Below are positions 9,301 through 24,025 of a DNA stretch of 54,027 bases, one piece after another. The position numbers and the translations under genes were made by a program. A model generated the notes under the pieces. That model was given only the letters and a program-made list of their open reading frames with translations, had not been told where the DNA came from and made no database searches. Source of the DNA: Blastocatellia bacterium (lineage in GTDB: Bacteria; Acidobacteriota; Blastocatellia; Chloracidobacteriales; Chloracidobacteriaceae); assembly GCA_019695185.1 (NCBI GenBank), contig JAIBAN010000056.1, forward strand, positions 1 to 54,027. Direction: 5' to 3'. Positions within the stretch are counted from its first letter, which is position 1, and every line of letters begins with the position of its first letter.

Positions 9301-12300
9301 ATGGACCAGACTCCCCCGACTCATGCTCCCCCATCACAACGGTGCTGTCATTGTGGAGCGCAGGTTGCCACCACCTGGGAATTTTGCATGACCTGCGGGT
9401 TACGGCTGGACGAGGCCGTTCTCAAAGAGATTTCCCATATTGATTACTTGCTGCAACAGGTCCATTCGTGGCCTCAAAAACAACTGATTTCCCAACCTGT
9501 GGCGCACAAGGTAACCGGTTATTACCAGGAGAATCGACATCACCTGATTCGGTCCCTCCTGCCGCGTCCGCCGATCCCCCCAAGAGAATCCACGGAACAA
9601 CCATTTCCAAACAACCTGACTCCCCTGCCCGAATTCCCGGCAAGATTGTATCCCGGTTCCGACAGGGGGCCGGCTCCAGGCACACCACCCCGACCAGAAA
9701 CACCCCCAAGTGGGTATTCCGGTCCCAGCGGACCGGCTCCGGGAACTCCTCCCCGGCCTGAGCCGCCCCCTTTTACTCCACCGCAACCTTCCTGGATTGA
9801 ACGACTTTCCGCCCCGCAGATCCTGATGTGGATGGTCTATGGCGGAGCCGGTCTGTTTGTCATTGGAACGCTGGTTTATCTGCGGGATGTGATCGCCCAG
9901 CAATTGCGACAACCGGTTGTCCAGGCCGGACTGCTGGCACTTCTGACCATTGGGGCCTTGGCCAGTGGCATCGGATTGCTGAAACGCACGCAACAACGAT
10001 TGGCGGGCCGGGGATTGGTCCTGTTGGGGTCGCTCCTCATCCCGGTCAACCCCTGGTTTTTGGTCCATTCCGGGTTGTTGCCCAGGGGAGACAAAGCCTG
10101 GGCGGTCGGACTGTTCTGCACCGTTGCCTATGGAACCCTGACTGTCATTCTCAACGAGCCGCTCCTGCTTTATTTAGCCTTGCCAGCCCTGCTGCTTTCC
10201 GGATTTGGCATATTGAACACGGTCTTACACGCACCTCCGGACGGGTACGCCCTGCTGGCCGCCATCTTTTCCCTGGTGGTGTTGTATGCTGAAACCCAAC
10301 TGGAACAGAATCCCCCCAAGGTATCGCCCACGGGCTCGCTTCCCTTTTCCCGGCCTTTCCTGCATGTAGGGCACCTCGTATTGGCAGCAACCCTGGCCGT
10401 CTATCTGGTGGTTTACCCGGTGGTGGGTTCTCCGGGAGCGTATGAAATCCGGCTCATTATCGGAGATTCAGCAGGTGCGCTTTCACAGGCCGGGTATGTT
10501 GGCCTCCTGCTGCTGGCGGCATTGGCCTATTTTGCAACGGCCTACCAGAAACAGATGCCGGTTCTGATGTATCTGGGCACGTTGTTGACGGTTTGGGCTT
10601 ACAGCAGTGAAATTTTCTGGTTCCGGCATGACCAGATTTCCGCACTGGTTCGGGTTGGTATCTGGATGGCAGGGACCTTTCTCTTTCTGCGGCTGGTGAC
10701 GTGGTTTGAGGCGGCTGCGGCTGCGGCTCAACGGTCAGGCCGTACTTACTGGCTGGGCGGTCAGTATATTTTTGCCCTCCGGCGTTGCTCCTATGCCCTT
10801 TTTGCGGTTTCGGCCCTGCTGACGTTGACAACGATCAGATTTGGCGGATTTGATGTGTTTGGAACCGTCAACCTGTTGGTTCAATTTGAGTTTTTCCTGT
10901 TGGCACTCTATTTCGCCCACCATGCCCGCCTGCGCGCCACCATGACACTTTCTTATCTGGCAGCCTGGCTGGCGCTCTTTATCATCAGTTGGGATGTCTG
11001 TGCCTTTGCTGTCCGGCAGCAGCCTTTGGCTGGGCTCAAACTAGGTCCGTATCACCTCTGGATGCTGACAGGGTTCGCGTTTCTCGGTGCGGCTCTGGCC
11101 GTGCGCCGGAATGCCCAGCCGGTCACACAAGGTCCTGACCGTCCCCAAATTATCATTGAAACGCTGTGGGCCGTGGCGGTTCTGGTTGCCCTCGTGAATG
11201 GCGTCCACTGGTTGGACCAGCTCTCCTACGGCGACCGGTTCAGGGTTCTGGTGCTGGGCGGTCAACTGGCGGCTTTTTTTGCGATTTCAGGGCACTGCAC
11301 CCGCAACCGGTTGGCAGGAATGGCCCAGGTGTTTGTCATGGCGGTGTTTGCCACCGGCTCTTATCTTGTCTTTACCCAAGAGCATTTGGCCTGGGCCGCG
11401 CTGTGGGCGGTTGTGCTTGCGGTTGCATTTGCCGGAATGCTGAAGATGAATCCGGTGAATGATTTTCGTTGGCCAGCCGGTTTGCTGGCAACCGGAACTC
11501 TGTATGGAACCGGTTTGACAGCTTATTTGGGAATGCGCCTCCTGACCATTTCCCTTGACCGGTTCCCTCGCTTCGAAAAATACGAATTGCTTTCCGCCGG
11601 TTTGCTTGCCCTCTGGGCTTTTGTACAGGCAGGGGTCCTTTGGCATGCACCAAACGGACTGGTGTCCGGGTTTGGCATTGACACAACGGAAACCTCCGGT
11701 CCCCGTTTCCGCAAAGCCGTTGTTCTCGGTTCAGCCTTTGCCGCCTGGGTCAACGTGTTTGCCGTTGTGGCTGCCAGCGGAGATACCGGCCTGCCCCGTC
11801 TGATTCCGTTTCAGGCTTCTTTTTATGCGGTTGTTTTAACCATTGGCGGAATCGCCATTTTGGAAACAGCCAAACTGACCGGTGCCGACAACCTGTGGCA
11901 TCTGTTTGGGAAAGCGGCTTTTGCGTTCATCTGTGTGTTTGCCCCCTGGCTGGTGGTCATCTCGTTGCCTCATATTGGACCGGCCACGGCTGCATTTGGA
12001 CAGCATGCCCTGTGTGTGTTTGCGACCATTGGCGTTTTGGGCACCTATCTGGCCGAGCGGCGGCATAACCGATTTATGTATCCGGCCCTGGGCTGTTTCT
12101 TTTTGGCCTATCTCCGGATTTTGATTTTCTGCCAAATGCCGGAAACCATGTTCCCTGCAACGATTTTGTTCTATGGATTCGTGTTGCTGGTTGCCGGAGT
12201 CCAAATCCTGCCCAAGCTGGCCAGCCGGTTTGAAAGCCAGGTCCGGAAAACCGGCCAGGTGTTTTCCTGGCTGGGTTTGGTTTTGGTTGGTTTGCAGGGC

Positions 12301-12966
12301 ATCCTTTGGTTCCCTGGTTTAGCCTCCGACCAACGGTTACTGTTGGTCTCGTTGATGGTGGGTGTGGTTGCGGCAGCAGTCAGCAGTTTTGTCCTCCGCA
12401 GTGAGGGAACCCGTAGCGGGTTTGGCTGGGCTGGTTTTGGGTTGGGTAATCTGCTCTATGTCCGCTGGATTGGTTTTTTGGGGTTTGAAATCTGGAAAGA
12501 CGTCGAAATTTATGCGGTTCCCCTGGGCGTGGCCCTGCTGGTTACCGGCTATATCAACCTGCGTCGAGGTGGCGCTACCGAAACACTCGGACGTTTCTTT
12601 ATCTGGCAGGGCAGCTTGATGGCCTGCGTTCCAACCCTGCTCCATGCCTTGCAATCCAGGTTTTTCCTGGAACATGCGTCGTACCGGTCGGATATCACAC
12701 TGGACACCATTTCCCTCCTGATGATTCTGGCCGGGGTCATACTGCCATTACGCGCACCATTGATGGTGGGCATTGCTTCGCTTTCGATCCACCTGCTGGC
12801 CGTCATTATTCAGTTTGTTCCCTGGGGGCAGATTCACTATGCCGTTTACCTGTCTGTCATTGGGGCTTCCCTGTTCGTTGCCGGCTGGATGCTCAACAAC
12901 CGGCGTGAACGAATTGCCAAGACATTCAGTGAAAAATATGACCCTCCCCACAATCCGATCCCTTAA
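9301..12966 (+). CDS. Large polytopic membrane protein (about 25 TM) with N-terminal zinc-ribbon and Pro-rich tandem repeat linker
   Basis: 1221 aa. RBS GAGGAGG lies 6 nt upstream. N-terminus has CCHCGAQVATTWEFCMTCGLRL (CxxC...CxxC). This is followed by a repeated GPAPGTPPRPE(T/P)PP motif and then continuous hydrophobic helices to the C-terminus. No known family is assigned. Confidence 0.7.
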   Translation: MDQTPPTHAPPSQRCCHCGAQVATTWEFCMTCGLRLDEAVLKEISHIDYLLQQVHSWPQKQLISQPVAHKVTGYYQENRHHLIRSLLPRPPIPPRESTEQPFPNNLTPLPEFPARLYPGSDRGPAPGTPPRPETPPSGYSGPSGPAPGTPPRPEPPPFTPPQPSWIERLSAPQILMWMVYGGAGLFVIGTLVYLRDVIAQQLRQPVVQAGLLALLTIGALASGIGLLKRTQQRLAGRGLVLLGSLLIPVNPWFLVHSGLLPRGDKAWAVGLFCTVAYGTLTVILNEPLLLYLALPALLLSGFGILNTVLHAPPDGYALLAAIFSLVVLYAETQLEQNPPKVSPTGSLPFSRPFLHVGHLVLAATLAVYLVVYPVVGSPGAYEIRLIIGDSAGALSQAGYVGLLLLAALAYFATAYQKQMPVLMYLGTLLTVWAYSSEIFWFRHDQISALVRVGIWMAGTFLFLRLVTWFEAAAAAAQRSGRTYWLGGQYIFALRRCSYALFAVSALLTLTTIRFGGFDVFGTVNLLVQFEFFLLALYFAHHARLRATMTLSYLAAWLALFIISWDVCAFAVRQQPLAGLKLGPYHLWMLTGFAFLGAALAVRRNAQPVTQGPDRPQIIIETLWAVAVLVALVNGVHWLDQLSYGDRFRVLVLGGQLAAFFAISGHCTRNRLAGMAQVFVMAVFATGSYLVFTQEHLAWAALWAVVLAVAFAGMLKMNPVNDFRWPAGLLATGTLYGTGLTAYLGMRLLTISLDRFPRFEKYELLSAGLLALWAFVQAGVLWHAPNGLVSGFGIDTTETSGPRFRKAVVLGSAFAAWVNVFAVVAASGDTGLPRLIPFQASFYAVVLTIGGIAILETAKLTGADNLWHLFGKAAFAFICVFAPWLVVISLPHIGPATAAFGQHALCVFATIGVLGTYLAERRHNRFMYPALGCFFLAYLRILIFCQMPETMFPATILFYGFVLLVAGVQILPKLASRFESQVRKTGQVFSWLGLVLVGLQGILWFPGLASDQRLLLVSLMVGVVAAAVSSFVLRSEGTRSGFGWAGFGLGNLLYVRWIGFLGFEIWKDVEIYAVPLGVALLVTGYINLRRGGATETLGRFFIWQGSLMACVPTLLHALQSRFFLEHASYRSDITLDTISLLMILAGVILPLRAPLMVGIASLSIHLLAVIIQFVPWGQIHYAVYLSVIGASLFVAGWMLNNRRERIAKTFSEKYDPPHNPIP

Positions 12967-13509
12967 AAACGTTTTTAGGAATTGGGGCGCGATGTGTTTA
13001 TCGCACCTGGCTTGAGGTCGAACCCAGAGCGACTTTTGGTGGAAGGCGATTGTGGCTCGGTTGGTTGACGGCTTCAAGAAACAGTAAACCTGCGATGAAA
13101 CCCATCGTGCCACATTTTTGCTAAATCGGACCACCCAACATTGGAACACTTTGCCATTTTTTTCTCACCGCAGAGGCGTAGAGAAAACGCAGAGAATGCG
13201 CAAAGAAAAAAACAGAAAAACTCTGCGAAAACTCTGCGAAAACTCCGCGTCTTCACGCTGAAAGTAAAAATTTAAAATGTTCCCATCTTTTGTGGATTGA
13301 TTTAGCCAAGAACTGCTGATTTTGACGATGAAGGCCGGGCGGAGGGAGTGGGTACAAATTTGAGAGGCTGTAGCAGATATTCAGCTTTCCTTTCACTCCT
13401 CTGCCATAGACCCAAAACCTGAAACTCAAAATTTGTAGGAATTCTGACGGCGGCTGTTTTAGGATGCAGCCGCATTTTTTATTTTCATGACAGGGAGTCA
13501 AAGGTTGCC

Positions 13510-15510
13510 ATGCTGAACATCAACCGGGTGATTTTATACAAACACGGAATTGGATATTTTGAACGAGCCGGTTCCATCGAAGGCGACAGGGCGGTGGATT
13601 TGTTTTTCCGCACCTCGGAAGTGAGCGACGTCCTCAAATCGCTGACGGTGATTGACCTGGACGGAGGCGAGATTGCCTCGGTGTCTTATGATTCCATCAA
13701 GCCGCTCGACGAACTGCTGCGCGACATTTCCCTGTCGGTGCCCGACGACAACAGTCTGCTCGGACTCCTGCCGCAATTGAAAGGGGCACAGGTGGAAATC
13801 CAGTGTGGCGGTGAAACCCTGCAAGCCATGATTGTGGGAATTGACCAGACGACCTCCCGCTCGGCGGACGGCATTACAACCACGCCCTCCATCACGGTTT
13901 TGACTTCAGACGGGCAACTGCAATCACTTTCCATGCGCGAGATTCGTTCGATTACCCTGCTTGAGGAACGACTGCGCAAGGAATTGGAGTATTACCTCAC
14001 CATGCATCTGTCCTCCAAAAAGAAGGACATCAAGAAATTCACTGTGTTCACCCAGGGGCAAGGTACCCGCCGGTTGCAGGTGAGCTACACGCTGCCCATG
14101 CCGGTCTGGAAGGCGACCTATCGCATCATCCTGGAGCCAAACCGCGAATCCATCATTCAAGGCTGGGCCGTGGTGGACAACACCCAGGACGAAGACTGGG
14201 AAAACGTCTCGTTGTCGCTGGTTTCCGGCCTTCCGATTTCGTTTATTCACGACCTCTATACCGCCCGCTATCTGCCGCGCCCGGTGGTGGCCGTCCAGGA
14301 GGAAACCTCGCTGGCACCACCGATGATGGAGGAACCCGTCTACCGCCAGGAACGCGCCACCAAAGAAATCTATCCGGGGGCAGCCGCAGCTCCGGCTCCG
14401 GCTCCGGCAGCCGAAAGTTATGCGACCACCGGCCTGGCGCAGGAAATGTCATTTGGGCATCAGGCCAAACGCCGGACCGCTCCGCAAGGCATCAGCAGCG
14501 TCAACGTCCAAACCCGCGAGCGGGCGGTGGGCGACCTGTTCCAGTACGAAATCACAACGCCGGTCACCATCAAGCGCAACCAGTCGGCGCTGGTTCCAAT
14601 TGTGTTTAAGAAATTCAAAGGCCGGTCGGTCCTCCTCTATAATGAACAAACCCGTGCCCGTAACCCGCTGACCTGCGTCGAGATGGAAAACACCACCGAA
14701 TTGACGCTGGAAGGCGGTCCGGTGACTGTGCTCGAAGGAGACACCTATGTGGGCGAGGCCATGCTGCAAACCATGAAGCCGGAGGAAAAACGACTGGTGC
14801 CCTATTCGGTTGAGCTGGGTGTCGTGGCCGAGGCCAAAATGGAAAGCCGGCAGGAACGAACCCACTTTGTCAAAATCGTCAACGGCACGTTGGAAGCCTG
14901 TTATCTGGATGTCCGGCAAAAAGTCTATGTGTTCAACAACAAGGTCAAAGCGGAACGGACCGTTTATATTGAACATCCGCGCGACCTGGGTTGGGAACTG
15001 ACTTCCACGCCGGAACCGGTTGAGACCACGCCCACCTATTACCGGTTCAAGGCCAAACTGGAACCCGACAGCACGGCGCGGTTTACGGTTCATGAAAAGC
15101 AGGAACGGAGCCACTATTATCAACTGCGCAATATCACAAGCGATGAGTTGGAATTCTACATTGGCCAGCGTTATGTCAACCGGCAGGCGGCAGAGACCCT
15201 GCAAAAAGTGCTGGAACTCAAACAGCAAATCAACGACCTTGACCTCGACCTGGGGCGTGCGGAAGTTGAAAGCCGTGACATTGAAACCGACCAGAAACGG
15301 ATCCGCGAAAATCTGCAATCGCTCAAGGAAGGCCGGGGTGAACAGGAACTCCGCACCCGGCTGGTGGAAAAACTGCTCAGTCAGGAGGAACGTCTGGAGC
15401 AATTGCAGAAATCCATCAGCCTGCAACGGGCCGAGCGCATCACCTTGCATGAAAAAATCAATTCGCTGATTGCTGACATCCGGATGGAAATCAATCTGAA
15501 TCAGGACTGA
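13510..15510 (+). CDS. Conserved hypothetical protein with C-terminal coiled-coil (possibly DUF4139/DUF4140-like)
   Basis: 666 aa. RBS AGGGAG. The globular N-terminal two thirds are followed by a heptad-rich coiled coil (LELKQQINDLDLDLGRAEVESRDIETDQKRIRENLQSLKEG...). The family assignment is from memory only and is weak. Confidence 0.55.
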   Translation: MLNINRVILYKHGIGYFERAGSIEGDRAVDLFFRTSEVSDVLKSLTVIDLDGGEIASVSYDSIKPLDELLRDISLSVPDDNSLLGLLPQLKGAQVEIQCGGETLQAMIVGIDQTTSRSADGITTTPSITVLTSDGQLQSLSMREIRSITLLEERLRKELEYYLTMHLSSKKKDIKKFTVFTQGQGTRRLQVSYTLPMPVWKATYRIILEPNRESIIQGWAVVDNTQDEDWENVSLSLVSGLPISFIHDLYTARYLPRPVVAVQEETSLAPPMMEEPVYRQERATKEIYPGAAAAPAPAPAAESYATTGLAQEMSFGHQAKRRTAPQGISSVNVQTRERAVGDLFQYEITTPVTIKRNQSALVPIVFKKFKGRSVLLYNEQTRARNPLTCVEMENTTELTLEGGPVTVLEGDTYVGEAMLQTMKPEEKRLVPYSVELGVVAEAKMESRQERTHFVKIVNGTLEACYLDVRQKVYVFNNKVKAERTVYIEHPRDLGWELTSTPEPVETTPTYYRFKAKLEPDSTARFTVHEKQERSHYYQLRNITSDELEFYIGQRYVNRQAAETLQKVLELKQQINDLDLDLGRAEVESRDIETDQKRIRENLQSLKEGRGEQELRTRLVEKLLSQEERLEQLQKSISLQRAERITLHEKINSLIADIRMEINLNQD

Positions 15511-15639
15511 GGACTGAGGACTGAGGGCTGAGAACCAACCGGAGCAGCAACCTGAAGCTGAGACTTTCCATGAAAGACTCCCCTGCATAATTTTGCTATG
15601 GCCAACACACGAAAAACTCAGTCCTCAGTCCTCAGTCCT
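15503..15639. repeat. Inverted pair of CTGAGGA-family heptamer arrays flanking the RBS/start of the ATP-grasp gene
   Basis: GGACTGAGGACTGAGGACTGAGGGCTGAG (15503-15532) and CTCAGTCCTCAGTCCTCAGTCCTG (15617-15639) are reverse complements separated by ~85 nt. Confidence 0.8.
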
Positions 15640-16896
15640 GTTTTTACTTCCTACGCTGAGTTTGCCCAAGCCCTTTATCAAACCGGGATTCTGTCGGACC
15701 CTTGGTTTGACGGGAACGAACGGTTCCGGCTGGAAGGCATCCGGCTGACATCCGACACCCTTCGCCAACTGGCCAAAACTGCCGAGCGGGTGGCCTATCT
15801 GCATCAGGAACTGGTGGAAATTCTGCTGGAGCACCCGGAACTGGTGGCCGAATTTTATCATTTGACACCGTGCCAGCAGGCCATGTGGGAAACCTCCGGC
15901 GGTGAATGGCATGGAATGGCCCGCGCCGACCTCTTTCTTTGCGAAGACGGACGGGTCCTCTGTTGCGAACTCAACAGCGACACGCCTTCGGGTCAGCCGG
16001 AGGCGGTCGTCCTGAATCAGCTTTTACACAATCATAATGGCCAACCGGAAGACCCAAACGCCGGATTTGCCGCCCGGTTTCTGGAGATGCTCCAGGAAAG
16101 CCATGCCAAACGAACCGACCAGCCGCTGGCACAGGTCGGCATCATCTATCCCACTGAACTCACCGAGGATTTGGGCATGATGACTCTTTTCCGCCGCTGG
16201 CTGGAAGCTGCTGGAATCCAGGTGGTGGTGGGTTCGCCTTTCAACCTGCACCGCACTGCAGACCGACTGGAAATCCTGGGCGTGCCGGTGGATTTGGTGG
16301 TGCGGCATTACAAAACCGACTGGTGGGGCGAACGGCTTCCCGTGTGGGCCGACCAAGCCGAGTTTCCCGACCCGGACCCGCTCTATGGTCCGCTCAAAAC
16401 CCTGCTCAAAGCCGAACTGGATGGCGTGGTGACCGTCGTCAATCCGTTTGGAGCGGTGGTTACCCAAAATAAATTTTCCCTGGCCTTTTTCTGGGAGGAA
16501 ATCGCCCGCTTCTCCCCCCGCTCGGCCCGCTGGATTCGCAAACACATTCCGGAAACCTATCGTATGACCACAGTGCCGCTCGAATTGCTGCGGGCTGAAC
16601 GGGAGCGGTGGGTCCTCAAAAGCGACTACGGCTGCGAAGGTGCAGAAACCGTGGTCGGCCCTTTCGTCAGTGATGAAATCTGGCACAAGAGTCTGGACAT
16701 GGCATTCCCCGAACATTTTGTCGTCCAACGATTTTTCCACGTCAAACCGGATGCCGCCGGCTGGTTGCCGAATTTCGGCGTCTTTGTGCTGGGCGGGAGC
16801 ACTGCCGGTTTCTTTACCCGGCTTTCCCCCAAAAGTACGGGGTATGACGCCGTGACGGTGCCAACTTTTGTTGCCAACTCATCGGCTGATAGGTGA
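15598..16896 (+). CDS. Glutathionylspermidine-synthase-like ATP-grasp amidoligase (YgiC/YjfC family, circularly permuted ATP-grasp)
   Basis: 432 aa. Motif RADLFLCEDGRVLCCELNSDTPSGQPEAVVLNQ matches the GSP_synth preATP-grasp signature (RxDF...DG..K.lEyNADTPtsl.Ea). Codons 7-14 are encoded by a CTGAGGA-family heptamer array. Confidence 0.7.
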   Translation: MANTRKTQSSVLSPVFTSYAEFAQALYQTGILSDPWFDGNERFRLEGIRLTSDTLRQLAKTAERVAYLHQELVEILLEHPELVAEFYHLTPCQQAMWETSGGEWHGMARADLFLCEDGRVLCCELNSDTPSGQPEAVVLNQLLHNHNGQPEDPNAGFAARFLEMLQESHAKRTDQPLAQVGIIYPTELTEDLGMMTLFRRWLEAAGIQVVVGSPFNLHRTADRLEILGVPVDLVVRHYKTDWWGERLPVWADQAEFPDPDPLYGPLKTLLKAELDGVVTVVNPFGAVVTQNKFSLAFFWEEIARFSPRSARWIRKHIPETYRMTTVPLELLRAERERWVLKSDYGCEGAETVVGPFVSDEIWHKSLDMAFPEHFVVQRFFHVKPDAAGWLPNFGVFVLGGSTAGFFTRLSPKSTGYDAVTVPTFVANSSADR

Positions 16897-16945
16897 ACAT
16901 ACTGAAAAAATTGTTTGGCTGTGAATCAAGGAGCAAAGCAAAACC

Positions 16946-18340
16946 ATGTCAGATGGGAATTTTCCTGAGCAGAAACCTTTTGGACGCGTCAATCGCCGGA
17001 CGGCTGCCTACGGCGGCGAATCGAAGGATTGGTGGCGGACATCGCGCCGCAAATTCATCATCGGCGGGGCGGTGGCCGGGGTCGGAGCCCTGGCTGTAGC
17101 TGGAGGCGGCCTCTATTGGCTGCTCAAAGACGATACCTCCGAAGTCAATCACGACTCGCTGGACTTGCAGAAAAAACATGGCTGGAACATTGGTTCCGAG
17201 GAAAAAACCATTTCGCTTCCCAATGCCCAAACCAAGGATTCGCTGGGAACGGAAAACTGGAAGAAGTATCTGGACCAGAATGCCATGCTGGCGGCCTGGA
17301 CTCCCAAAGCACCAAACTGGGCACCCTATTTTGTGCCAACCCTGATACAGTCGCTCCAGTTTGAAACCCTGCGCAAGGTGATGACACCGGTTTTCACGCC
17401 CGATATGCAGGAAGCCTACGAACGGGCGCAATCCATCGCCAGGGATTTTCTGGCCAATGCCCAGAATGCCGCCGACACTGCCATTGTGGTGGATGTTCCC
17501 GGACGGGACAGTGTCGCGTTTGGCGCGGGCATGGCCGATTCGGGCCGCCTGATTGCCGGGTTTGACAATTTTCCGCACCCGCTGGGCGTGGTTCCCTCGC
17601 ACGAAACGCTGGGAGCGTTGCTGTATTACACAGGCGAAATCGAAACCAAACAGGCCCAGGTGAAGGATACGGCTCCGGCGGTGTTTCTGCTCGATTCAAA
17701 GCGGCTTTCCGAGTACAAGGACGAAGAAACCCAGTTTGACAACCGCTTTCTGGCCAAACTGCCCTCGGCTCAGAAACTCCGTGAAGCAGGCATCAAATCC
17801 ATTCTCTATATCACACCGGACCGGGCCCGGAGCGAGGAACTCGACGACCTGAACGAGGATTTTGTCGCATTCAAAGACCAGGGCCTGAGCGTGGCCGTCC
17901 TGCCGCTCAGTGATTTCACCCCCGTCAGCGAAACCGTGGCCCAAAAACAGGCCGACGGAACCACGCAAACCCAGGTGGTGCGGCATTATTATTATGGCGG
18001 GAACCCGCTGGGGCACACGTGGTTTTTCTACTCGTACCCGTTTTATTCGCCCTATCCGTCGTATGTGCAACGGTATCCGACCTATTCGCGCCCGCCCTCA
18101 CCGCCGCCGGTCAGCGCGCCCAGATACCTGCCTGCACCACGCCCGACCATGTTTTCAGGCACCCGCATCGGAGGTTCGGCCAGCGGGGTCGGACGCAGCA
18201 AACCGAGCGGTTTCGGTCGCACCACAGTTCGCGTTTCGCCGAGCGGTTCGGTCGTCGGAACCCGCCCTGGACGGTCGGGCTACTATTCGCCCAGCCGGAG
18301 CGGCTCGTTTGGCCGGAGCGGTTCATCTTCAGGCGGATAA
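16946..18340 (+). CDS. Membrane-anchored protein with Tyr/Pro-rich and Ser/Gly/Arg-rich low-complexity C-terminal tail (possible DUF1190/YgiB-YjfM-like partner of the ATP-grasp)
   Basis: 464 aa. RBS AAGGAGCA. One TM helix (IIGGAVAGVGALAVAGGGLYWLL). C-terminus is ...YYYGGNPLGHTWFFYSYPFYSPYPSYVQRYPTYSRPPSPPPV...GRSGSSSGG. The DUF1190 call rests on neighbourhood logic (E. coli ygiBC and yjfMC) plus weak tail similarity. Confidence 0.5.
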   Translation: MSDGNFPEQKPFGRVNRRTAAYGGESKDWWRTSRRKFIIGGAVAGVGALAVAGGGLYWLLKDDTSEVNHDSLDLQKKHGWNIGSEEKTISLPNAQTKDSLGTENWKKYLDQNAMLAAWTPKAPNWAPYFVPTLIQSLQFETLRKVMTPVFTPDMQEAYERAQSIARDFLANAQNAADTAIVVDVPGRDSVAFGAGMADSGRLIAGFDNFPHPLGVVPSHETLGALLYYTGEIETKQAQVKDTAPAVFLLDSKRLSEYKDEETQFDNRFLAKLPSAQKLREAGIKSILYITPDRARSEELDDLNEDFVAFKDQGLSVAVLPLSDFTPVSETVAQKQADGTTQTQVVRHYYYGGNPLGHTWFFYSYPFYSPYPSYVQRYPTYSRPPSPPPVSAPRYLPAPRPTMFSGTRIGGSASGVGRSKPSGFGRTTVRVSPSGSVVGTRPGRSGYYSPSRSGSFGRSGSSSGG

Positions 18341-18352
18341 GCGGTTTTCCGA

Positions 18353-19159
18353 ATGCCTTTTACCCTCTCACATCCGGCGGCGGTGCTTCCCTTTACCCGC
18401 CGGGGCTGGAGTTTGTCGGCCCTGGTCACAGGAAGCATGGCCCCGGATTTTCTGTATTTCCTGCTGCTGGTGCCGGGCACTCATTTTGGCCATACCCTGC
18501 CCGGTATTTTCCTTTTTTGCCTGCCGGCAGGCTGGATGGCTTTAGGGCTTTTTCATGGTCTGCTCAAATGGCCCCTGCTGGCGCTTTTGTCGCCACCCCA
18601 CCAAGCCCGGCTGCTGCTTCCCACCCGTGCCTTTGCGGTTCAATCCCTGGCCCAGCTCTTTTCAATCAGCAGCCAGATGTGCCTGGGGACCGTTACCCAT
18701 ATCGTTTGGGATTCCTTTACCCACGAACCCGGCTGGTCGGTCCAACGGTTGCCCTTTTTACTGGCTCCGGCGGTTACCTTCGGAACGGTTTCCCTACCCT
18801 GGTGCAAGTTGCTGCAACACCTGAGCACTCTGGCCGGCGGAGCGGTGCTCTTTTTCAGATACCGCCGCTGGTTTCAGACTGCTCCTGAAACCACCACCCC
18901 AGGCATGCTTCAACTTACCCTGAAACAAAAATTTCTGACTGGTGTTGGAATCATTCTGTTTGGCAGCCTGGGAGGAGTGATCTTTATTTGGAACAAAGTA
19001 CCGTTTGGGTTTGATTTCCGAACCCTGAACATTTTCCTGACCCGGCTGGGAATTTCCTCCCTCTCGTTCAGTTTTGTGGGACTCCTGCTGTATAGTGTCG
19101 GCTGGCACTGGTTTTTTCGCCAGTCTGGGCAACAAACACTCGACCCAGCTTCAGACTGA
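18353..19159 (+). CDS. DUF4184 family membrane protein
   Basis: 268 aa. N-terminus MPFTLSHPAAVLPF... matches the characteristic MPFTFSHPA start of DUF4184. Several TM helices. Confidence 0.55.
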   Translation: MPFTLSHPAAVLPFTRRGWSLSALVTGSMAPDFLYFLLLVPGTHFGHTLPGIFLFCLPAGWMALGLFHGLLKWPLLALLSPPHQARLLLPTRAFAVQSLAQLFSISSQMCLGTVTHIVWDSFTHEPGWSVQRLPFLLAPAVTFGTVSLPWCKLLQHLSTLAGGAVLFFRYRRWFQTAPETTTPGMLQLTLKQKFLTGVGIILFGSLGGVIFIWNKVPFGFDFRTLNIFLTRLGISSLSFSFVGLLLYSVGWHWFFRQSGQQTLDPASD

Positions 19160-19185
19160 AGAGTTTCTTTTCCCGCGAAGGTTGT

Positions 19186-19593
19186 ATGAAGTCCACCCCA
19201 AAACCGCCGCGCAGACCCCGCAAGCCATCGCCTCAAAGCGACAACCTGCCGCCCTTTGTGAAAACCTTTGTGATGGGAGCCAGACCGGATGGCACCCCCA
19301 TCCTTCATACTCCCGAACAGATGCGTGCCTTCCTGGCCCAAAAAACCGGTGACGGGGAGATGACGCTGGCGGAACTGACAGCCCTGAATACCCTGGGTGA
19401 ACTGTGCGGCGACTTGTATGACATCCAGGAATTGACCAGACGATTTCACGAAATCGGAGCGAGCTATCAAAAAAACAATCAACTGGTAAAGGCTCTGGCA
19501 ATCTTCAAAAAAATCGCAAAACTTGACCCATCGGACATAGTGGCAGCGCAGAAGTGCAAGGAAATCCTGGACACTCTGGGAATCAAATCATAA
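19186..19593 (+). CDS. Hypothetical small protein (basic N-terminus, TPR-like C-terminus)
   Basis: 135 aa. GAAGG lies upstream of the ATG. No family recognised. The competing antisense ORFs look like GC artefacts. Confidence 0.4.
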   Translation: MKSTPKPPRRPRKPSPQSDNLPPFVKTFVMGARPDGTPILHTPEQMRAFLAQKTGDGEMTLAELTALNTLGELCGDLYDIQELTRRFHEIGASYQKNNQLVKALAIFKKIAKLDPSDIVAAQKCKEILDTLGIKS

Positions 19594-19790
19594 CCATCAG
19601 CGGAGTTAAGGCGTTGCTCCGGTGTTTTACCCTTCGGGTGCTTCCAAGAAACCGTCCCGATGACTTGCACATTTCCAGGAATTTTGGATAACTGCAACCA
19701 AACCGGACGATTTTCCACGATAGAATGGATGTTTCGCAACCTGAACAAAGGCTGCCTTCATTCCTTTGCACCAAAACAGTTGAGGTACCT

Positions 19791-20390
19791 ATGTTTCGAA
19801 CCCTAATCACAGTTGTTTTGTTTTTGCTCTGTGTTCCAATGACCGGTTTCGGTTTTTTGCAGGAACCCAAATCCGCCTTTTTCCCGCAAAACGTGGGCGA
19901 CCAGCACACCTACCGGAAAACCGGTCTGGGCGGGCAGGCCGTTGAATGGACCGACATTGTCCTCCAGAACGAAGGCCGCCGTTTCCAGCATTCCGATTAC
20001 TGGGGTGATGGCCGGCCCCGCTGGCTGTTGGCCAAAAACGCCGAAAAAATCTATGAATTCGACAATGGGAAAAAACTGCTCTGGTATAAGTTTGGAGCCA
20101 GTGAAAAAGAGGAATGGACCATCCAGGTGATGGGCGAAACGCCGGTTTGCGTCAATCAATCGGTGCTCCGGGTGGTGGGACGCGATGAAATCGTGACTGT
20201 TCCGGCAGGGACATTTGAACATTGCCTGCATCTTTCCTTTGAGCCCAAATGCTCCGATGCGGGAGCGCTGCAACAGTGGTTTGCCCCCAATGTCGGTCTG
20301 GTCAAACAGCTTGACAATACGATTGGCGGCCCTATCAAGGTTGAACTGATCCGGGCCCGTGTCAACGGAAAAACTGTCGGACAGAACTGA
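19791..20390 (+). CDS. Secreted hypothetical protein
   Basis: Internal start MFRTLITVVLFLLCVPMTGFG (signal peptide) is preceded by GAGG. The overlapping minus-strand ORF 19803..20579 is judged spurious. Confidence 0.5.
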   Translation: MFRTLITVVLFLLCVPMTGFGFLQEPKSAFFPQNVGDQHTYRKTGLGGQAVEWTDIVLQNEGRRFQHSDYWGDGRPRWLLAKNAEKIYEFDNGKKLLWYKFGASEKEEWTIQVMGETPVCVNQSVLRVVGRDEIVTVPAGTFEHCLHLSFEPKCSDAGALQQWFAPNVGLVKQLDNTIGGPIKVELIRARVNGKTVGQN

Positions 20391-20546
20391 CATGGAAACA
20401 GGGCTGAAGACTGAAAACTGAGTTTGTTTCCATTCCTGGCGGTGCGTCGCCAGGGTCATGAAGTTTGATATGGAAAAGCCGGTGAATGGTAAATGACTGA
20501 TTGAGTGAAGGCCCTTCCATTTACCATTCATCATGCACCAAAACCT

Positions 20547-21512
20547 ATGGGTGATTTCTTTCAGTTTCTGATGAAACATGGGTACTCGGTCGTGTTTGGC
20601 TGGGTGCTGGCGGAACAGTTGGGAATTCCGGTCCCGGCGGCTCCGGTCCTGCTGGCAGCGGGAGCGCTGGTGGCCTTGGGCAAAATGAACCTGCTCCTGG
20701 CAGCGGGGTTGGCCTTGGCGGCCTCGGTTTGTGCCGACCTGCTCTGGTATGAAATCGGGCGGCGGCGCGGCAGCCGGGTCTTGACCTTCCTCTGCAAAAT
20801 TTCACTGGAGCCAGACTCCTGCGTCAAAAACACTGAAAACGCCTTTGCCCGGAATGGAGCCCGGTCACTGGTTCTGGCCAAACTGGTTCCCGGACTGGGC
20901 ACGGTCGCACCGCCTCTGGCGGGAATCATGGGGATGCGGCTGGGCCGGTTCCTTTTCTTTGATGCCTGCGGGGCGCTGCTCTGGATTGGCCTTTTTATGG
21001 GGCTGGGCATGATTTTTTCCAACCAGCTTGAGCTGGTCCTCGAACTGGCTTCGCAGCTTGGTGAAAAATTCGGCCTTTTACTTGGCGGCACGCTTGCAGC
21101 CTACATTGGTTGGAAGTACATTCAGCGGCAACTGTTCATCCGTCATTTGCGTTCAGCCCGCATCACGCCCCAACAACTGAAAGAAAAACTGGATGCCGGA
21201 GAAAATGTGATTGTGGTTGACCTGCGGCACACGGCGGCACTCCAGTATGACCCGGATACCATTCCCGGAGCCAGGCACGTTGACCCCGACGAGTTGGACG
21301 AGAAAAACGACCTGATTCCACCGGACCGGGAGGTAATTCTTTTCTGCACTTGACCGAACGAAGCCAGCAGCGCCCGGGTGGCGCTCCGATTGCAGAAAAA
21401 AGGCATTACCAATGTGCGGCCCCTGCTCGGTGGCCTGGATGGCTGGCGGACCCAGAATTTTCCGGTGGTCCAACATCCGCTCACCACCGGTTCAGAAGTT
21501 GAAACCGGTTGA
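20547..21512 (+). CDS. DedA/VTT-family membrane protein fused to C-terminal rhodanese domain, with in-frame TGA (candidate Sec) in the rhodanese catalytic loop
   Basis: DedA part: MGDFFQFLMKHGYSVVFGWVLAEQLGIPVP... Rhodanese part: ...NVIVVDLRHTAALQYDPDTIPGARHVDPDEL...REVILFCT. TGA at ~21351-21353 is followed in the same frame by PNEASSARVALRLQKKGITNVRPLLGGLDGWRTQNFPV, a complete rhodanese C-terminal half. Next in-frame stop is ~21510-21512. The track ORF ends at 21353. Confidence 0.55.
21369..21385 (+). promoter_or_regulatory. Hairpin 15 nt downstream of the in-frame UGA (candidate bacterial SECIS-like element)
   Basis: AGCGCC CGGGU GGCGCU: 6-bp GC stem with a 5-nt loop containing G and U. 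Position is within the distance window used by bacterial SECIS models. Confidence 0.3.
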
Positions 21513-21553
21513 TTGCAACCGATTCCTATTCAAATTTGGAGGATGTTCCAACC

Positions 21554-22153
21554 ATGTCGTGGTTTTCACGCATGTTCGGCGGCGAACAAAGTTACTTTTT
21601 GGGTCTTCAGGTTTTGATTCGGGCCTTTGGTGAAGACACCATTCGGGCCCGCTTTGCCAATGTGATTGCAGACCCGGACGGCAGTTTGCAGGATGTCGAA
21701 GCCAAACGCCGGTACCTCAAACGGATTGTGGCCTTATTGCTGGAACAGGAACCCTACTGGAGCCAGGGGTTTTGGGATTATAAAACCGACCACGGTGAGG
21801 CAACGGCGGAATTTGACTCCTGGGCAGCAGAGCTTTCGGCTACCACTGCCACTGAGCATGAGGAATTTGATTCCGATGTGGATGGCATGCGGCGGCTTTC
21901 CAAGAAAAAAGACTATATTTGCGTGACCATCATCCTGCATCTCAGCGAACCGTTCCCGCCCGCCGATGTCACCAACGAAGCACTCTTTTGGCAGCGCCAG
22001 ACCTTTCGCCAACTTTTTAACGGACTCCTGTATCTGAACCCTGAAGCCATTCTGGCGGATGGGGTGTTTGTGGTTCCCGGCAGTCCTGAAGACGGGCTTT
22101 CCGAAGAAGACCTGCTCACCGGTGGCTGGAGCTATTTGCGGGCGATTGCCTAA
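21554..22153 (+). CDS. Hypothetical protein, possibly DUF1517-like
   Basis: GGAGGA lies 10 nt upstream of ATG (MSWFSRMFGGEQS...). The C-terminal ...VVPGSPEDGLSEEDLLTGGWSYLRAI resembles the DUF1517 C-terminal pattern from memory. Weak. Confidence 0.45.
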   Translation: MSWFSRMFGGEQSYFLGLQVLIRAFGEDTIRARFANVIADPDGSLQDVEAKRRYLKRIVALLLEQEPYWSQGFWDYKTDHGEATAEFDSWAAELSATTATEHEEFDSDVDGMRRLSKKKDYICVTIILHLSEPFPPADVTNEALFWQRQTFRQLFNGLLYLNPEAILADGVFVVPGSPEDGLSEEDLLTGGWSYLRAIA

Positions 22154-22324: not shown

Positions 22325-24025
22325 GTGCTGACCTCAATGCTTGGGCAAACCATTGATAACAAAATCCTCCTGGAGTCCGTTCTGGGCGAGGGTGGAATGG
22401 GAGCGGTGTTTCGAGGGCGGCACCTGCGGTTGGACCGGACCGTCGCAGTCAAGGTCATTCAACCGGACCTAGTGGCGGACCGGCAGGCAGTTGACCGGTT
22501 CCTGCGGGAAGCCCGCACCGCCGCCCGGATTGAACATCCCAACGTCATCACCATTTTTGATTTCGGGGCTTTGACCAACGGGTGTGCCTACCTGGAAATG
22601 GAATTTATCGAAGGAGTGTCGCTGTTTCAGATTTTGGTCCGGCAAGGCGCACTCCCGCTTGAGGTGGCCTTCCCCATCATCCGGGAGGTCTGTGCAGCAG
22701 TGGAAGCGGCTCATGCCAAAGGGGTGGTCCATCGGGACCTGAAACCGGCCAACATCATGCTCAAGCAGTTGGACCGGGGTGGATGGACGGTCAAAGTGCT
22801 TGATTTTGGGCTGGCGAAAGCCATTGAAGGCTCTGACAACCTGACCAAAACCGGAGAATTTCTGGGCACTCCCATGTATATGTCACCGGAACAATGTGAC
22901 GGTGCAGAGCTTGACCAAAGGTCAGACATCTACAGCCTGGGCGTCATTTTTTATGAAATGCTGGCGGGCCGTCCGCCGTTCAAGGGACGACTGGTTGAAA
23001 TCATCAAATCGCACGCCACCAGAAACCCTGAGCCAATCTCCAATTTCAACCCGATTGTCACCAACCAGGTCAGCCAGGCGATTTTAACCGCTATGGCCAA
23101 AGACCCCAATGACCGCCCGGCAACGGTCAGGGACTATTTCGCCCGGTTGGAACAGGCGTTCACCCAACAATTGGCAACTCCGGTACAAACACTGAACCTG
23201 AATGGAATAGCCTTTGGAGCCGTGCCTGTCCCATCGTATTCCGGCACACTCAGCGAGCAACCCAGTCCAACTCCGTTTCAAACCTTAAAGGAAACACCGC
23301 CATCCAGATCAGTGGTACCGCTCTCCAGCCCTGTGGTGGAGGATACCGACCCCAAGCACTCTTCTTTTCAGCCTACCCTGAAAGAAACTCTCGCTCCTGG
23401 TACCAAAGGCGGAACCATCTCTTTGGGTTCCAGTCAACCGCTTGACAAAGAAGTAATCCCGCCTGATGCCTATCGCACCCGTCAATCGGTACCGGTTTCC
23501 ACCGGGCAATCCGGCAATCTGGCAACTTTGCGCGACCCCCTGCCGCTTCCGTTGACTGAAAATATCAAACCGACACAGGCCCGGTCCAAGCGCACACCGC
23601 TACTGGTGGGAGGATTGGTGACCAGTCTGGTTGCAGTGACTGTGGGAGGCTGGTGGATGTTTGTTCCCAAACCCGCTCCGGCGCAACCCAGCACGCCCGT
23701 TACCAAACCGGGACCGGTTGAACCGGCCAGCACCAAGTTGACCCCGGAAAACCCCGGTACCAATGTCCAACCACAACCGGCCAGCCCGGTTGAAAAAAAA
23801 CCCACCTCCGCTCCCGACCCCAGGCCGACCGCTTCGCATGAGCCTGAGCCTCCACCAATTCGCCCAGGTGACCGTCCCCCCATTCAACGACCTGAACCAC
23901 CCAAAAAGGAAAATGTCTGGAAAAAAATGGGCAAAGGGATGCTCGGCGTCCTTACCGGCGAAGATAAAAACAACAAGGACCGTGGCAAAGACAAAAAGAA
24001 TAAACACAATCGGGACCGGGATTGA
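22325..24025 (+). CDS. Membrane-anchored Hanks-type Ser/Thr protein kinase
   Basis: 566 aa. Kinase subdomains GEGGMGAVFRG, AVK, HRDLKPANIML, DFGLAK, SPEQ. Pro/Thr-rich linker, one TM helix (LLVGGLVTSLVAVTVGGWWMF), and a Lys/Asp-rich tail. GTG start. Confidence 0.85.
   Translation: MLTSMLGQTIDNKILLESVLGEGGMGAVFRGRHLRLDRTVAVKVIQPDLVADRQAVDRFLREARTAARIEHPNVITIFDFGALTNGCAYLEMEFIEGVSLFQILVRQGALPLEVAFPIIREVCAAVEAAHAKGVVHRDLKPANIMLKQLDRGGWTVKVLDFGLAKAIEGSDNLTKTGEFLGTPMYMSPEQCDGAELDQRSDIYSLGVIFYEMLAGRPPFKGRLVEIIKSHATRNPEPISNFNPIVTNQVSQAILTAMAKDPNDRPATVRDYFARLEQAFTQQLATPVQTLNLNGIAFGAVPVPSYSGTLSEQPSPTPFQTLKETPPSRSVVPLSSPVVEDTDPKHSSFQPTLKETLAPGTKGGTISLGSSQPLDKEVIPPDAYRTRQSVPVSTGQSGNLATLRDPLPLPLTENIKPTQARSKRTPLLVGGLVTSLVAVTVGGWWMFVPKPAPAQPSTPVTKPGPVEPASTKLTPENPGTNVQPQPASPVEKKPTSAPDPRPTASHEPEPPPIRPGDRPPIQRPEPPKKENVWKKMGKGMLGVLTGEDKNNKDRGKDKKNKHNRDRD

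Follow-up and report, generated by a model that had tools for sequence, protein, structure and literature searches.

The window analysed here is a stretch of 54,027 nucleotides from a Blastocatellia bacterium (positions 1 to 54,027 of contig JAIBAN010000056.1). Three co-directional genes are present on its + strand, with exactly the coordinates and sizes given in a previous, sequence-only reading: gene A (13510-15510, 666 aa), gene B (15598-16896, 432 aa) and gene C (16946-18340, 464 aa). Gene A encodes a putative DUF4139/MuiA-like protein and adjoins the conserved module described below but lies outside it. Gene B encodes an amide ligase, predicted to be cytoplasmic, that is a circularly permuted ATP-grasp enzyme from the GSP_synth family, and gene C encodes a predicted exported, membrane-anchored protein with a basic C-terminal tail, which belongs to an unnamed family. 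B and C are separated by 49 nt. This interval contains a putative ribosome-binding site of gene C (AAGGAG, 16929-16934, + strand), read from the sequence, and its terminator-like sites are not above chance. Promoter and terminator scans were also considered for setting operon boundaries, and were dropped since their counts did not exceed those of shuffles. A fourth gene, DUF1517-like (21509-22153, + strand), encodes a predicted cytoplasmic protein. No DUF350 gene, which is found with distant relatives of C, is present in the window, and no polyamine biosynthesis gene was detected among the window ORFs scanned.

The product of gene B is a genuine circularly permuted ATP-grasp enzyme. It scores 43.7 bits against the Pfam GSP_synth model PF03738 (cut-off 29.3) over model positions 29-355 of 371, and the PF03738 flag is precomputed on 120 of the 120 gene B homologues listed. 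It contains no hydrophobic segment. The top Foldseek matches of its AF2 model (pLDDT 86.9) are 2io8, 7uk6, 7uk8 and 7uka, with E values from 5e-18 to 7e-17; GspS (2io8) is matched at E 5e-18 with a TM of about 0.65, YjfC (7uk6) with TM values of 0.70/0.77, and YgiC is represented by 7uk8 and 7uka. Near its N-terminus, B carries the motif GMARADLFLCEDGRVLCCELNSDTP (residues 106-130; 15913-15987, + strand), the counterpart of the R-x-D...E-x-N metal/ATP motif that classical ATP-grasp enzymes have in their C-terminal part. The motif residues are invariant in 61 B homologues, and in a profile of B homologues this stretch aligns with residues 300-335 of D-Ala-D-Ala ligase. The presence of a classically C-terminal motif near the N-terminus of B indicates circular permutation. 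Thus, the earlier assignment of B as a GSP-synthetase-type ATP-grasp is borne out by the Pfam HMM score above the cut-off, by the permuted motif and by the fold.

The narrower label of a YgiC/YjfC-type enzyme is correct for the Pfam family and the fold, but not for orthology. Identity with YgiC and YjfC in BLASTP is 27-31% over only about 90 residues, and the hhalign probability is 0.2%. The PDB entries of YgiC, YjfC and GspS were matched neither by phmmer with B nor by the profile of B homologues, and BLASTP of B against five DUF1190-linked ligases gave E values of at least 0.11. Judged by these sequence comparisons, B belongs to a separate GSP_synth subfamily and is not a YgiC/YjfC orthologue. 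The sequence-only reading had also stated that none of the three genes has an assigned function, which no longer holds for the enzyme class, since the RefSeq product names of YgiC and YjfC are peptide--spermidine ligases. In 2023 both enzymes were shown to join spermidine to peptides, according to a review that leaves open what they modify in the cell and what the DUF1190 proteins encoded beside them do (PMC11762307).

Gene C founds an unnamed family. It has no Pfam or NCBIfam family match, a protein search yields 718 homologues, and in a library of representatives the family comprises 339 clusters at 50% identity with E<=1e-30 and 1019 with E<=1e-3. No match on plasmids was obtained for C or its partner. 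The only hydrophobic segment of the protein (residues 38-56) agrees with its previous description as a membrane-anchored protein of 464 aa. This segment is part of a putative twin-arginine-type signal anchor, TSRRKFIIGGAVAGVGALAVAGGGLYWL (residues 32-59; 17039-17122, + strand), in which a hydrophobic stretch rich in Gly and Ala comes after TSRRKFII. R34 and R35 do not vary among 73 homologues, an RR-x-hydrophobic motif is present in 115 of the 127 family representatives, and a lipobox-like Cys is also found in 35 of these 127. The sole match of C to TAT models is TIGR02811, weak and under threshold (E=0.09), and one C homologue carries a JGI label of TAT signal. The conserved twin arginine fits a maturation of C in the cytoplasm ahead of export. 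The central region is a predicted alpha/beta domain (residues ~90-365; 17213-18040, + strand) containing the invariant polar motifs FDNxPHPLGV, HE, D..R..Y, QFDNRY and ExDDxN; no solved relative of this domain was found.

The protein ends in a conserved basic tail (residues 392-464; 18119-18337, + strand), proposed below as a ligase target or partner element, that is Tyr/Pro-rich at first, then Ser/Gly/Arg-rich, and finishes with GG. A peptide of this tail is ...RSGSFGRSGSSSGG, the tail pattern is Y.P..RPTMFSGTR.GG..GVGRSKPSGFGRTTVR...GTR.GRSG...RSGSFGR...GG-COOH, and the family motif is RSGS[FWY]GR. The last 75 residues of the window protein include 11 Arg/Lys and no Asp/Glu. The last 70 residues of close homologues have medians of 0 acidic and 11 basic residues, and 73 of the 127 representatives have no acidic residue in their last 60, the protein body being 12.9% acidic. 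A [RK][ST]GS-aromatic motif occurs in 88 of the 127 representatives, and its distance from the end is fixed, with a median of 14 residues. Of 117 close homologues, 113 have Gly as their terminal residue, although the Gly content of the tail is only about 0.3, and this Gly is equally conserved in homologues lacking an adjacent ligase (47 of 49); of the 127 distant representatives, 124 end in G, S or A (S in 37, A in 9). The AF2 model of C is of low confidence over the tail. In 73 aligned homologues the tail motifs are invariant or nearly so, a degree of conservation that marks the tail as a selected element and not as drifting low complexity. The term low-complexity tail used previously therefore describes the S/G/R/Y/P composition well, but not the constraint.

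The same tail had been considered DUF1190-type, a claim that the profile searches contradict. Pfam DUF1190 (PF06693) matched neither full-length C at E<=0.1 nor four isolated C-type tails at E<=10, in a run that scored YgiB at 187 and YjfM at 64 bits. Neither a 72-column C-tail HMM, applied to the YgiB and YjfM tails, nor an HMM of the 16 C-terminal residues, applied to seven DUF1190 tails, scored the real tails above shuffles: from 250 to 1465 of 2000 composition-matched shuffles reached the real DUF1190 score. All that the two kinds of tail have in common is a short [GS]-G-[FYW]-G(R) element and a GG/GS end. The Pfam scans and the two shuffle-controlled profile tests give no support to homology between the C tail and DUF1190. 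What C shares with DUF1190 proteins is its context: a ligase gene neighbours C in the window and in many of its relatives, DUF350 accompanies it in distant relatives, and C is likewise predicted to be exported and membrane-tethered.

Gene A had been described as a coiled-coil protein, which holds for residues ~555-666 (the last ~110 residues). The remainder is probably DUF4139/MuiA-like, on the basis of weak matches to Pfam PF13598 (DUF4139; 15.8 bits, cut-off 31.8, E=0.011) and TIGR02231 (23 bits, cut-off 112.6, E=2.9e-5). PF13598 is precomputed on about half of the gene A homologues (~50% identical) and is marked weak at two A-homologue loci. A survey of C loci comprised 80 genome and 80 metagenome loci, and none of these 160 contains a gene A homologue. 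Three gene A homologues were examined; they have no ligase and no C nearby and lie in unrelated contexts. The closest named relatives of A belong to the Gemmataceae/Planctomycetes, which, together with the absence of A from the 160 related loci, indicates that A is a local neighbour and not a member of the module. The 160 loci and the unrelated contexts of the three homologues rule A out as a cassette member, and the three-gene cassette does not stand as a conserved unit.

It is therefore very improbable that A, B and C constitute a cassette in which B adds residues to a C tail homologous to the DUF1190 proteins YgiB and YjfM. The three genes do lie side by side in the same direction, and no terminator-like signal exceeding chance separates them; C and DUF1190 tails also both contain the [GS]-G-[FYW]-G-R element and end in GG. 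However, A is missing from the related loci and its relatives have other neighbours, DUF1190 is negative both in Pfam at E<=10 and in the shuffle-controlled profiles, and B is not a YgiC/YjfC orthologue.

Conservation of the gene neighbourhood is found for B and C, but not for A. A B-type ligase is located directly upstream of C in 27 of the 66 species-level genome loci with enough flank, for instance in Entotheonella (L064) and in L071, and the two genes are unlinked in 39. In 50 of the 80 genome loci there is no ligase within 8 kb, FHA, Ser-Thr kinase and PEGA genes being found upstream instead. Chloracidobacterium carries a 65%-identical ligase on another replicon, beside unrelated genes. 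For distant C relatives (~34% identity), 42 of 50 loci contain the ligase and 39 of 44 contain DUF350. A gene order found in these loci is DUF350, ligase, C and a protein of ~190 aa, and the ligase often overlaps the start of C by 4 bp. A 270-aa protein encoded upstream of distant C genes had no Pfam, NCBIfam or PDB sequence match. The ligase that accompanies C remains within one subfamily: in distant loci it keeps 46-52% identity where C keeps ~34%; for instance, B shares 46% identity with a ligase whose neighbouring C relative shares only 34% with C. The ligase recurs beside distant C proteins in two different gene arrangements.

The gene immediately following C, and co-directional with it, is DUF1517-like in 67 of 74 genome loci and in 67 of 67 metagenome loci; in the window, four inserted genes displace the DUF1517-like gene to 3.2 kb downstream of C. 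The window copy scores 32.5 bits against Pfam PF07466 (DUF1517; cut-off 23.3) over model positions 37-176 of 184, as compared with 25.8 bits for its relative in L005 and 31.2 bits for that in L043. The copy in L094, the most distant one, falls below Pfam and is connected to the window copy by tblastn (E 2.7e-9). A remote homology of this partner with YjfK/DUF2491 was rejected, as hhalign found nothing. FLAP1, a DUF1517 membrane protein of plants and cyanobacteria, has been linked to chloroplast pH and NPQ regulation (PMC9174948). Unlike FLAP1, the copies linked to C are mostly devoid of a transmembrane helix, are ~200 aa long and match the model partially, and the function of FLAP1 is not transferable to them. 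The conserved module, which is widespread, consists of DUF350, ligase, C and DUF1517-like genes, and the window carries its local form.

The adjacency of B and C might be accidental; C would then function with the DUF1517-like protein alone or, in some clades, also with the FHA/Ser-Thr kinase/PEGA genes. C and the DUF1517-like gene do form the tighter pair, and the 50 ligase-free genome loci with FHA, kinase and PEGA genes upstream are in line with this explanation, which we nevertheless consider improbable: the ligase persists beside C at ~34% C identity, in two arrangements and with overlapping stop and start codons, and chance synteny would not survive such divergence and rearrangement. A functional link between B and the tail-bearing C is thus supported, and the recurrence of the pair across distant bacteria makes C a testable candidate as substrate or partner of the ligase.

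Given the enzyme family and fold that B displays, the way in which C is built and conserved, and the conserved linkage of the genes, we infer, tentatively, that B, C and the DUF1517-like protein may act in an envelope module in which B amidates the C-terminal carboxylate of C before Tat export; this is plausible, if still short of an even chance. As a cytoplasmic amide ligase, B would activate a carboxylate as acyl-phosphate and couple an amine to it; its E. coli relatives YgiC and YjfC couple spermidine to the C-termini of peptides. The substrate could be the C-terminal carboxylate of the C tail, which is predicted to be disordered, is free of acidic residues and has a small residue at its end. 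Capping by a polyamine or a similar amine would remove the only negative charge of the tail. Folded and modified C would then be exported by Tat and would stay membrane-anchored by its uncleaved signal or, in the lipobox-bearing relatives, by a lipid, and its polycationic tail could contact an anionic envelope component. Since the bulk and the tail of C are predicted to be outside the cytoplasm and B inside it, the model requires modification before export. Gene A would play no role.

Several observations weigh on this amidation model. Only peptides have been reported as substrates of the ligase class, which speaks against C as substrate. The 39 unlinked loci out of 66, with the Chloracidobacterium ligase on another replicon, and a terminal Gly as conserved without an adjacent ligase (47 of 49), also count against it. 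So do the variation of the last residue across the wider C family and the lack of a polyamine biosynthesis gene among the window ORFs scanned, and the model leaves the roles of DUF350 and of the DUF1517-like protein unexplained. It is also possible, although rather unlikely, that B and C share one pathway in which C is not the substrate. B would then make a small peptide-amine or other amide conjugate in the cytoplasm, the DUF350 membrane protein would move or sense it, the extracytoplasmic alpha/beta domain of C would bind, process or respond to it, and the basic tail would only position C on an anionic surface.

A wider and doubtful generalization can be considered. GSP_synth-type ligases might be protein-modifying enzymes that, in the cytoplasm and before export, amidate with a polyamine the C-terminal carboxylate of a dedicated envelope protein (C here, DUF1190 in Proteobacteria), the unrelated C and DUF1190 having converged on one acceptor tail. 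Such a reaction would be a previously unrecognised post-translational modification, and the convergent acceptor would be basic, acid-free and of the form [GS]-G-aromatic-G-R ... G/S-COOH. The C proteins represent a second, independent family of ligase partners. This family is large, with no fewer than 339 clusters at 50% identity, has no Pfam/NCBIfam model and shows a C-terminus far more strongly conserved than that of DUF1190 proteins. A long-standing question, whether the ligase caps the C-terminus of its partner, becomes testable in this four-gene envelope module (DUF350, ligase, C and DUF1517-like), which is composed almost entirely of domains of unknown function.

Different known systems can be compared with this module. 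B shares the permuted ATP-grasp fold and the Pfam family with GspS and trypanothione synthetase. GspS activates the carboxylate of a C-terminal glycine and forms an amide with a polyamine. Unlike GspS, to which it is only 15-17% identical, B has no amidase domain and nothing links it to glutathione. The ATP-grasp enzymes of the RimK and tubulin-tyrosine-ligase type provide a precedent, as they act on the C-terminal carboxylate of a specific protein, encoded or working nearby; however, they are classical, non-permuted enzymes that add amino acids instead of polyamines, and their targets are cytoplasmic.

In E. coli, yjfL-yjfM-yjfC and ygiB-ygiC likewise place a GSP_synth ATP-grasp gene beside that of an exported, membrane-tethered protein with a Gly/Ser/Arg tail. 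The former system encodes a DUF350 protein, a DUF1190 lipoprotein and a peptide--spermidine ligase, and DUF350 is often present with C as well. Seven of seven DUF1190 proteins, from five genera, have an adjacent GSP_synth gene and a GG or GS end that follows an R-G-G-[FYW]-G motif, and DUF350 is present at five of these seven loci. C differs from DUF1190 proteins in being twice as long and in having a separate alpha/beta domain without known relative and a putative twin-arginine anchor, whereas both have tails with a [GS]-G-aromatic-G-R element and a GG or GS end. The ligase of the C module belongs to a subfamily other than those of the yjf and ygi systems, and it is accompanied by a DUF1517-like gene instead of PspA, YjfI or YjfK genes. 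The ligase precedes C here, while the partner precedes the ligase in E. coli-type systems. Operons of the DUF350-DUF1190-GSP_synth type, found in Rhizobium, Azospirillum, Aureimonas and Vibrio, follow, like yjfL-yjfM-yjfC, the same module logic as the C module.

Three co-directional open reading frames, here called genes A, B and C, occupy positions 13510-18340 of the window, exactly where the sequence-only reading had placed them. Gene A (13510-15510, + strand) encodes 666 aa, gene B (15598-16896, +) 432 aa and gene C (16946-18340, +) 464 aa. The window, a contig of 54,027 bp, belongs to a metagenome-assembled genome of Blastocatellia (Acidobacteriota), under whose name C and B are found at 100% identity. 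A and B are 87 nt apart and B and C 49 nt, and an AAGGAG ribosome-binding site precedes gene C. The three genes may be co-transcribed; promoter- and terminator-like sites around them are no more frequent than in shuffled sequences, and the sole convincing hairpin with a T-run in the region (13450-13473) lies upstream of A. Directly upstream of the three genes is a 1221-aa polytopic membrane protein (9301-12966, +) with an N-terminal zinc-ribbon (weak matches), a Pro-rich linker and a SCO7613 C-terminal domain (NCBIfam 52.5 bits, cut-off 45).

Gene B had been described as a GSP-synthetase-like ATP-grasp enzyme, and this holds. It scores 43.7 bits with Pfam GSP_synth (curated threshold 29.3). 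In a profile of B homologues, residues 106-130 (GMARADLF..EDGR....ELNSDTP) line up with the catalytic motif that D-Ala-D-Ala ligase carries at its C-terminal end, as is characteristic of circularly permuted ATP-grasp enzymes. An AlphaFold model built with 61 homologues (pLDDT 86.9) has as its best PDB match the E. coli glutathionylspermidine synthetase (GspS) domain 2io8 (E 5e-18), and also matches YjfC 7uk6 (TM 0.70/0.77) and YgiC 7uk8 and 7uka. B is thus an amide ligase of the GspS/YgiC fold, and it is devoid of an export signal. The further assignment to the YgiC/YjfC type stands for the fold but not for orthology: BLASTP identity is 27-31% across only ~90 residues, the PDB entries of YgiC/YjfC were not reached from B by phmmer or profile searches, and five DUF1190-linked ligases of other genera gave E values of 0.11 or higher.

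Gene C was examined together with its neighbours in two independent scans. The first comprised 80 C loci, one genome per species, nearly all of them from Blastocatellia, Pyrinomonadaceae or Chloracidobacterium, together with Entotheonella and Kapaibacteria. In 27 of the 66 loci with enough flank a B-type ligase immediately precedes C, and a DUF1517-like gene follows C directly on the same strand in 67/74. In a ligase-less Blastocatellia clade, the genes before C instead encode an FHA protein, a fusion of a Ser/Thr kinase with an FGE-sulfatase domain, and a secreted protein with a PEGA domain.

The second scan started from distant C relatives. Gene calls were looked up at three loci, which read DUF350 - GSP_synth - C - ~190 aa protein; GSP_synth - C; and 270 aa protein - DUF350 - GSP_synth - C - 198 aa protein; at each of them the ligase gene runs 4 bp into C. 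L094, one of these distant loci, has a ligase sharing 46% identity with B and a C protein at 34%, and its 198-aa product is homologous to the DUF1517-like protein. Analysis by tblastn of metagenome loci obtained with these relatives as seeds found the DUF1517-like gene downstream of C in 67/67 loci, DUF350 in 39/44 and the ligase in 42/50, either directly upstream of C on the same strand (20 of the 42) or in a divergent DUF350-ligase block (the other 22). The ligase adjoins C in many relatives, including those with a ~34%-identical C, and the counts from both scans define the conserved unit as DUF350, ligase, C and the DUF1517-like gene. This association persists through deep sequence divergence and through changes of gene arrangement.

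L094 (2445-3257) and 35 metagenome loci (e.g., L168:2308-3105) encode a conserved ~270-aa protein directly upstream of their distant C genes. It carries invariant H-R-D and D-x-H-G-V motifs resembling a 2-His-1-carboxylate iron site, matches nothing in Pfam, NCBIfam or the PDB sequences, and is absent from the window. Should it prove to be a hydroxylase, C would have a second candidate modifier.

Gene A does not belong to this unit. A three-gene cassette had been proposed, but A homologues occur in none of the 80 loci of the first scan, and tblastn detected neither A nor DUF1190, YjfK or PspA in the metagenome loci. Moreover, three ~50%-identical A homologues lie in unrelated contexts, with neither ligase nor C nearby; A thus lies beside the unit without being part of it. 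Its supposed coiled-coil character is confined, on composition, to residues ~555-666, the remainder being weakly DUF4139/MuiA-like in Pfam and NCBIfam profile scans. One homologue is 68% identical and the other best ones ~50%, and about half carry PF13598. Named A homologues come from Gemmataceae/Planctomycetes, whereas B and C relatives are from Acidobacteriota; A may be patchily distributed or horizontally transferred. At its stop codon there is a 7-bp repeat (15506-15533, +; GGACTGA three times, then GGGCTGA), which places TGA triplets every 7 bp and hence in all three reading frames.

The window contains a reduced, locally rearranged version of the unit. B and C adjoin, no DUF350 gene is present within the window, and the DUF1517-like gene (21509-22153; Pfam 32.5 vs 23.3 bits) is shifted by 3.2 kb. 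Four genes intervene (18353-21353, +): a DUF4184/Zn-phospholipase-C-like gene (18353-19159, +), a 135-aa ORF (19186-19593, +), a DUF3108-like gene (19725-20390, +) and a DedA/VTT plus rhodanese gene (20505-21353, +). This block looks like a local insertion, since the partner directly follows C in 67/74 other genomes. In Chloracidobacterium (L083, CP072648.1, versus protein P0100) the B-type ligase, 65% identical to B, has unrelated neighbours, among them a protochlorophyllide-reductase-like gene, and is carried by the 2.66-Mb replicon; the C homologue is on a 1.0-Mb replicon, where no DUF1517-like gene lies within 8 kb of it. In the window, the DUF1517-like gene is followed by a Ser/Thr kinase (22325-24025, +), and a kinase link to C recurs in L043, L061 and L086, where FHA, kinase-FGE-sulfatase and PEGA/CarboxypepD_reg genes lie upstream of ligase-less C. 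Further downstream, a 654-aa protein (27617-29581, +) has a Band_7/SPFH domain at residues 334-508 only, the long N-terminal part before it being unannotated; elsewhere in bacteria, Band-7 proteins are found with GSP_synth/PspA operons (PMC11237479).

Gene C matches no Pfam or NCBIfam family. Nevertheless, a word-indexed search gave 718 homologues and an exhaustive library search 339 representatives at E<=1e-30 (1019 at E<=1e-3), most of them 430-510 aa long and matching through to the C-terminus; C founds a large family. The protein can be divided into four parts, the first being an N-terminal signal anchor, the third an aromatic and proline-rich stretch and the fourth the tail. At the N-terminus an extension is followed by TSRRKFII and by a Gly/Ala-rich stretch, the sole hydrophobic segment in C. 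Both arginines of the RR motif are invariant in the homologue alignment; RR-x-hydrophobic is found in 115/127 diverse representatives, and a lipobox-like Cys additionally in 35/127, such as the Entotheonella and Kapaibacteria relatives. We read this N-terminus as a Tat-type anchor or a lipoprotein signal, with moderate support because curated Tat models remain below threshold.

The tail, previously regarded as low complexity, is not a drifting sequence: RPTMFSGTR, GVGRSKPSGFGRTTVR, GTRAGRSG and RSGSFGR vary little or not at all in 73 aligned homologues. In the window copy, the last 75 residues include 11 basic and 0 acidic ones. Among the 127 representatives, the median count of acidic residues over the last 60 positions is 0, and 73/127 lack them there altogether, against 12.9% in the protein body. 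A [RK][ST]GS-aromatic motif is found in 88/127, at a median of 14 residues from the C-terminus. The final residue is Gly in 113/117 close homologues, although the Gly content of the tail is only ~0.3, and G, S or A in 124/127 representatives. C is thus a predicted exported or anchored protein whose tail is under strong constraint, lacks acidic residues and ends in a small residue.

The tail had also been likened to DUF1190, the family of the YgiC/YjfC partners YgiB and YjfM, and every test run speaks against this. Pfam DUF1190 does not match full-length C, nor isolated C tails even at E<=10, in a run that gave 187 bits for YgiB and 64 for YjfM. YgiB and YjfM score no better than composition-matched shuffles with a 72-column C-tail HMM, and the same is true of seven DUF1190 tails (E. 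coli YgiB and YjfM, and one each from Vibrio, Sulfitobacter, Rhizobium, Azospirillum and Aureimonas) with a 16-residue C-terminal HMM. Only short compositional features are shared, namely a [GS]-G-[FYW]-G-R element and a GG or GS end, and the likeness is treated as analogy, possibly convergence, rather than homology.

How B and C might cooperate can be proposed tentatively. GspS activates a C-terminal Gly carboxylate. In the model that we prefer, while giving it somewhat less than even chances, B, in the cytoplasm, would activate the C-terminal carboxylate of C, the sole negative charge in the tail, and amidate it with a polyamine-type amine; finished C would then be exported via Tat. This fits GspS chemistry, the peptide-spermidine activity of YgiC/YjfC, the conserved C terminus of C, and Tat, because Tat exports completed proteins. 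On the other hand, B and C are often unlinked in Blastocatellia, the terminal Gly is equally conserved where the ligase is not adjacent, Ser or Ala termini occur in the wider C family, and the action of B on a protein substrate is inferred. The main rival, in our judgement only somewhat less likely, is that B would make a small conjugate that DUF350 handles and the C domain binds or processes.

YgiC and YjfC now bear the RefSeq product name 'peptide--spermidine ligase'; according to a 2025 review, their ligase activity was shown in 2023 and their physiological substrate is still open (PMC11762307). The B/C pair offers a clean test for that substrate in this ligase class. Our literature search, incomplete in coverage, found no paper describing the C family or the ligase-C linkage. 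The system appears to work like the DUF350/DUF1190/GSP_synth operons of Proteobacteria (PMC11237479). However, partner C is from a different, undescribed family, not DUF1190, the ligase B belongs to a different subfamily, and the accessory gene is DUF1517-like, whereas the operons of Proteobacteria have PspA, YjfI and YjfK.
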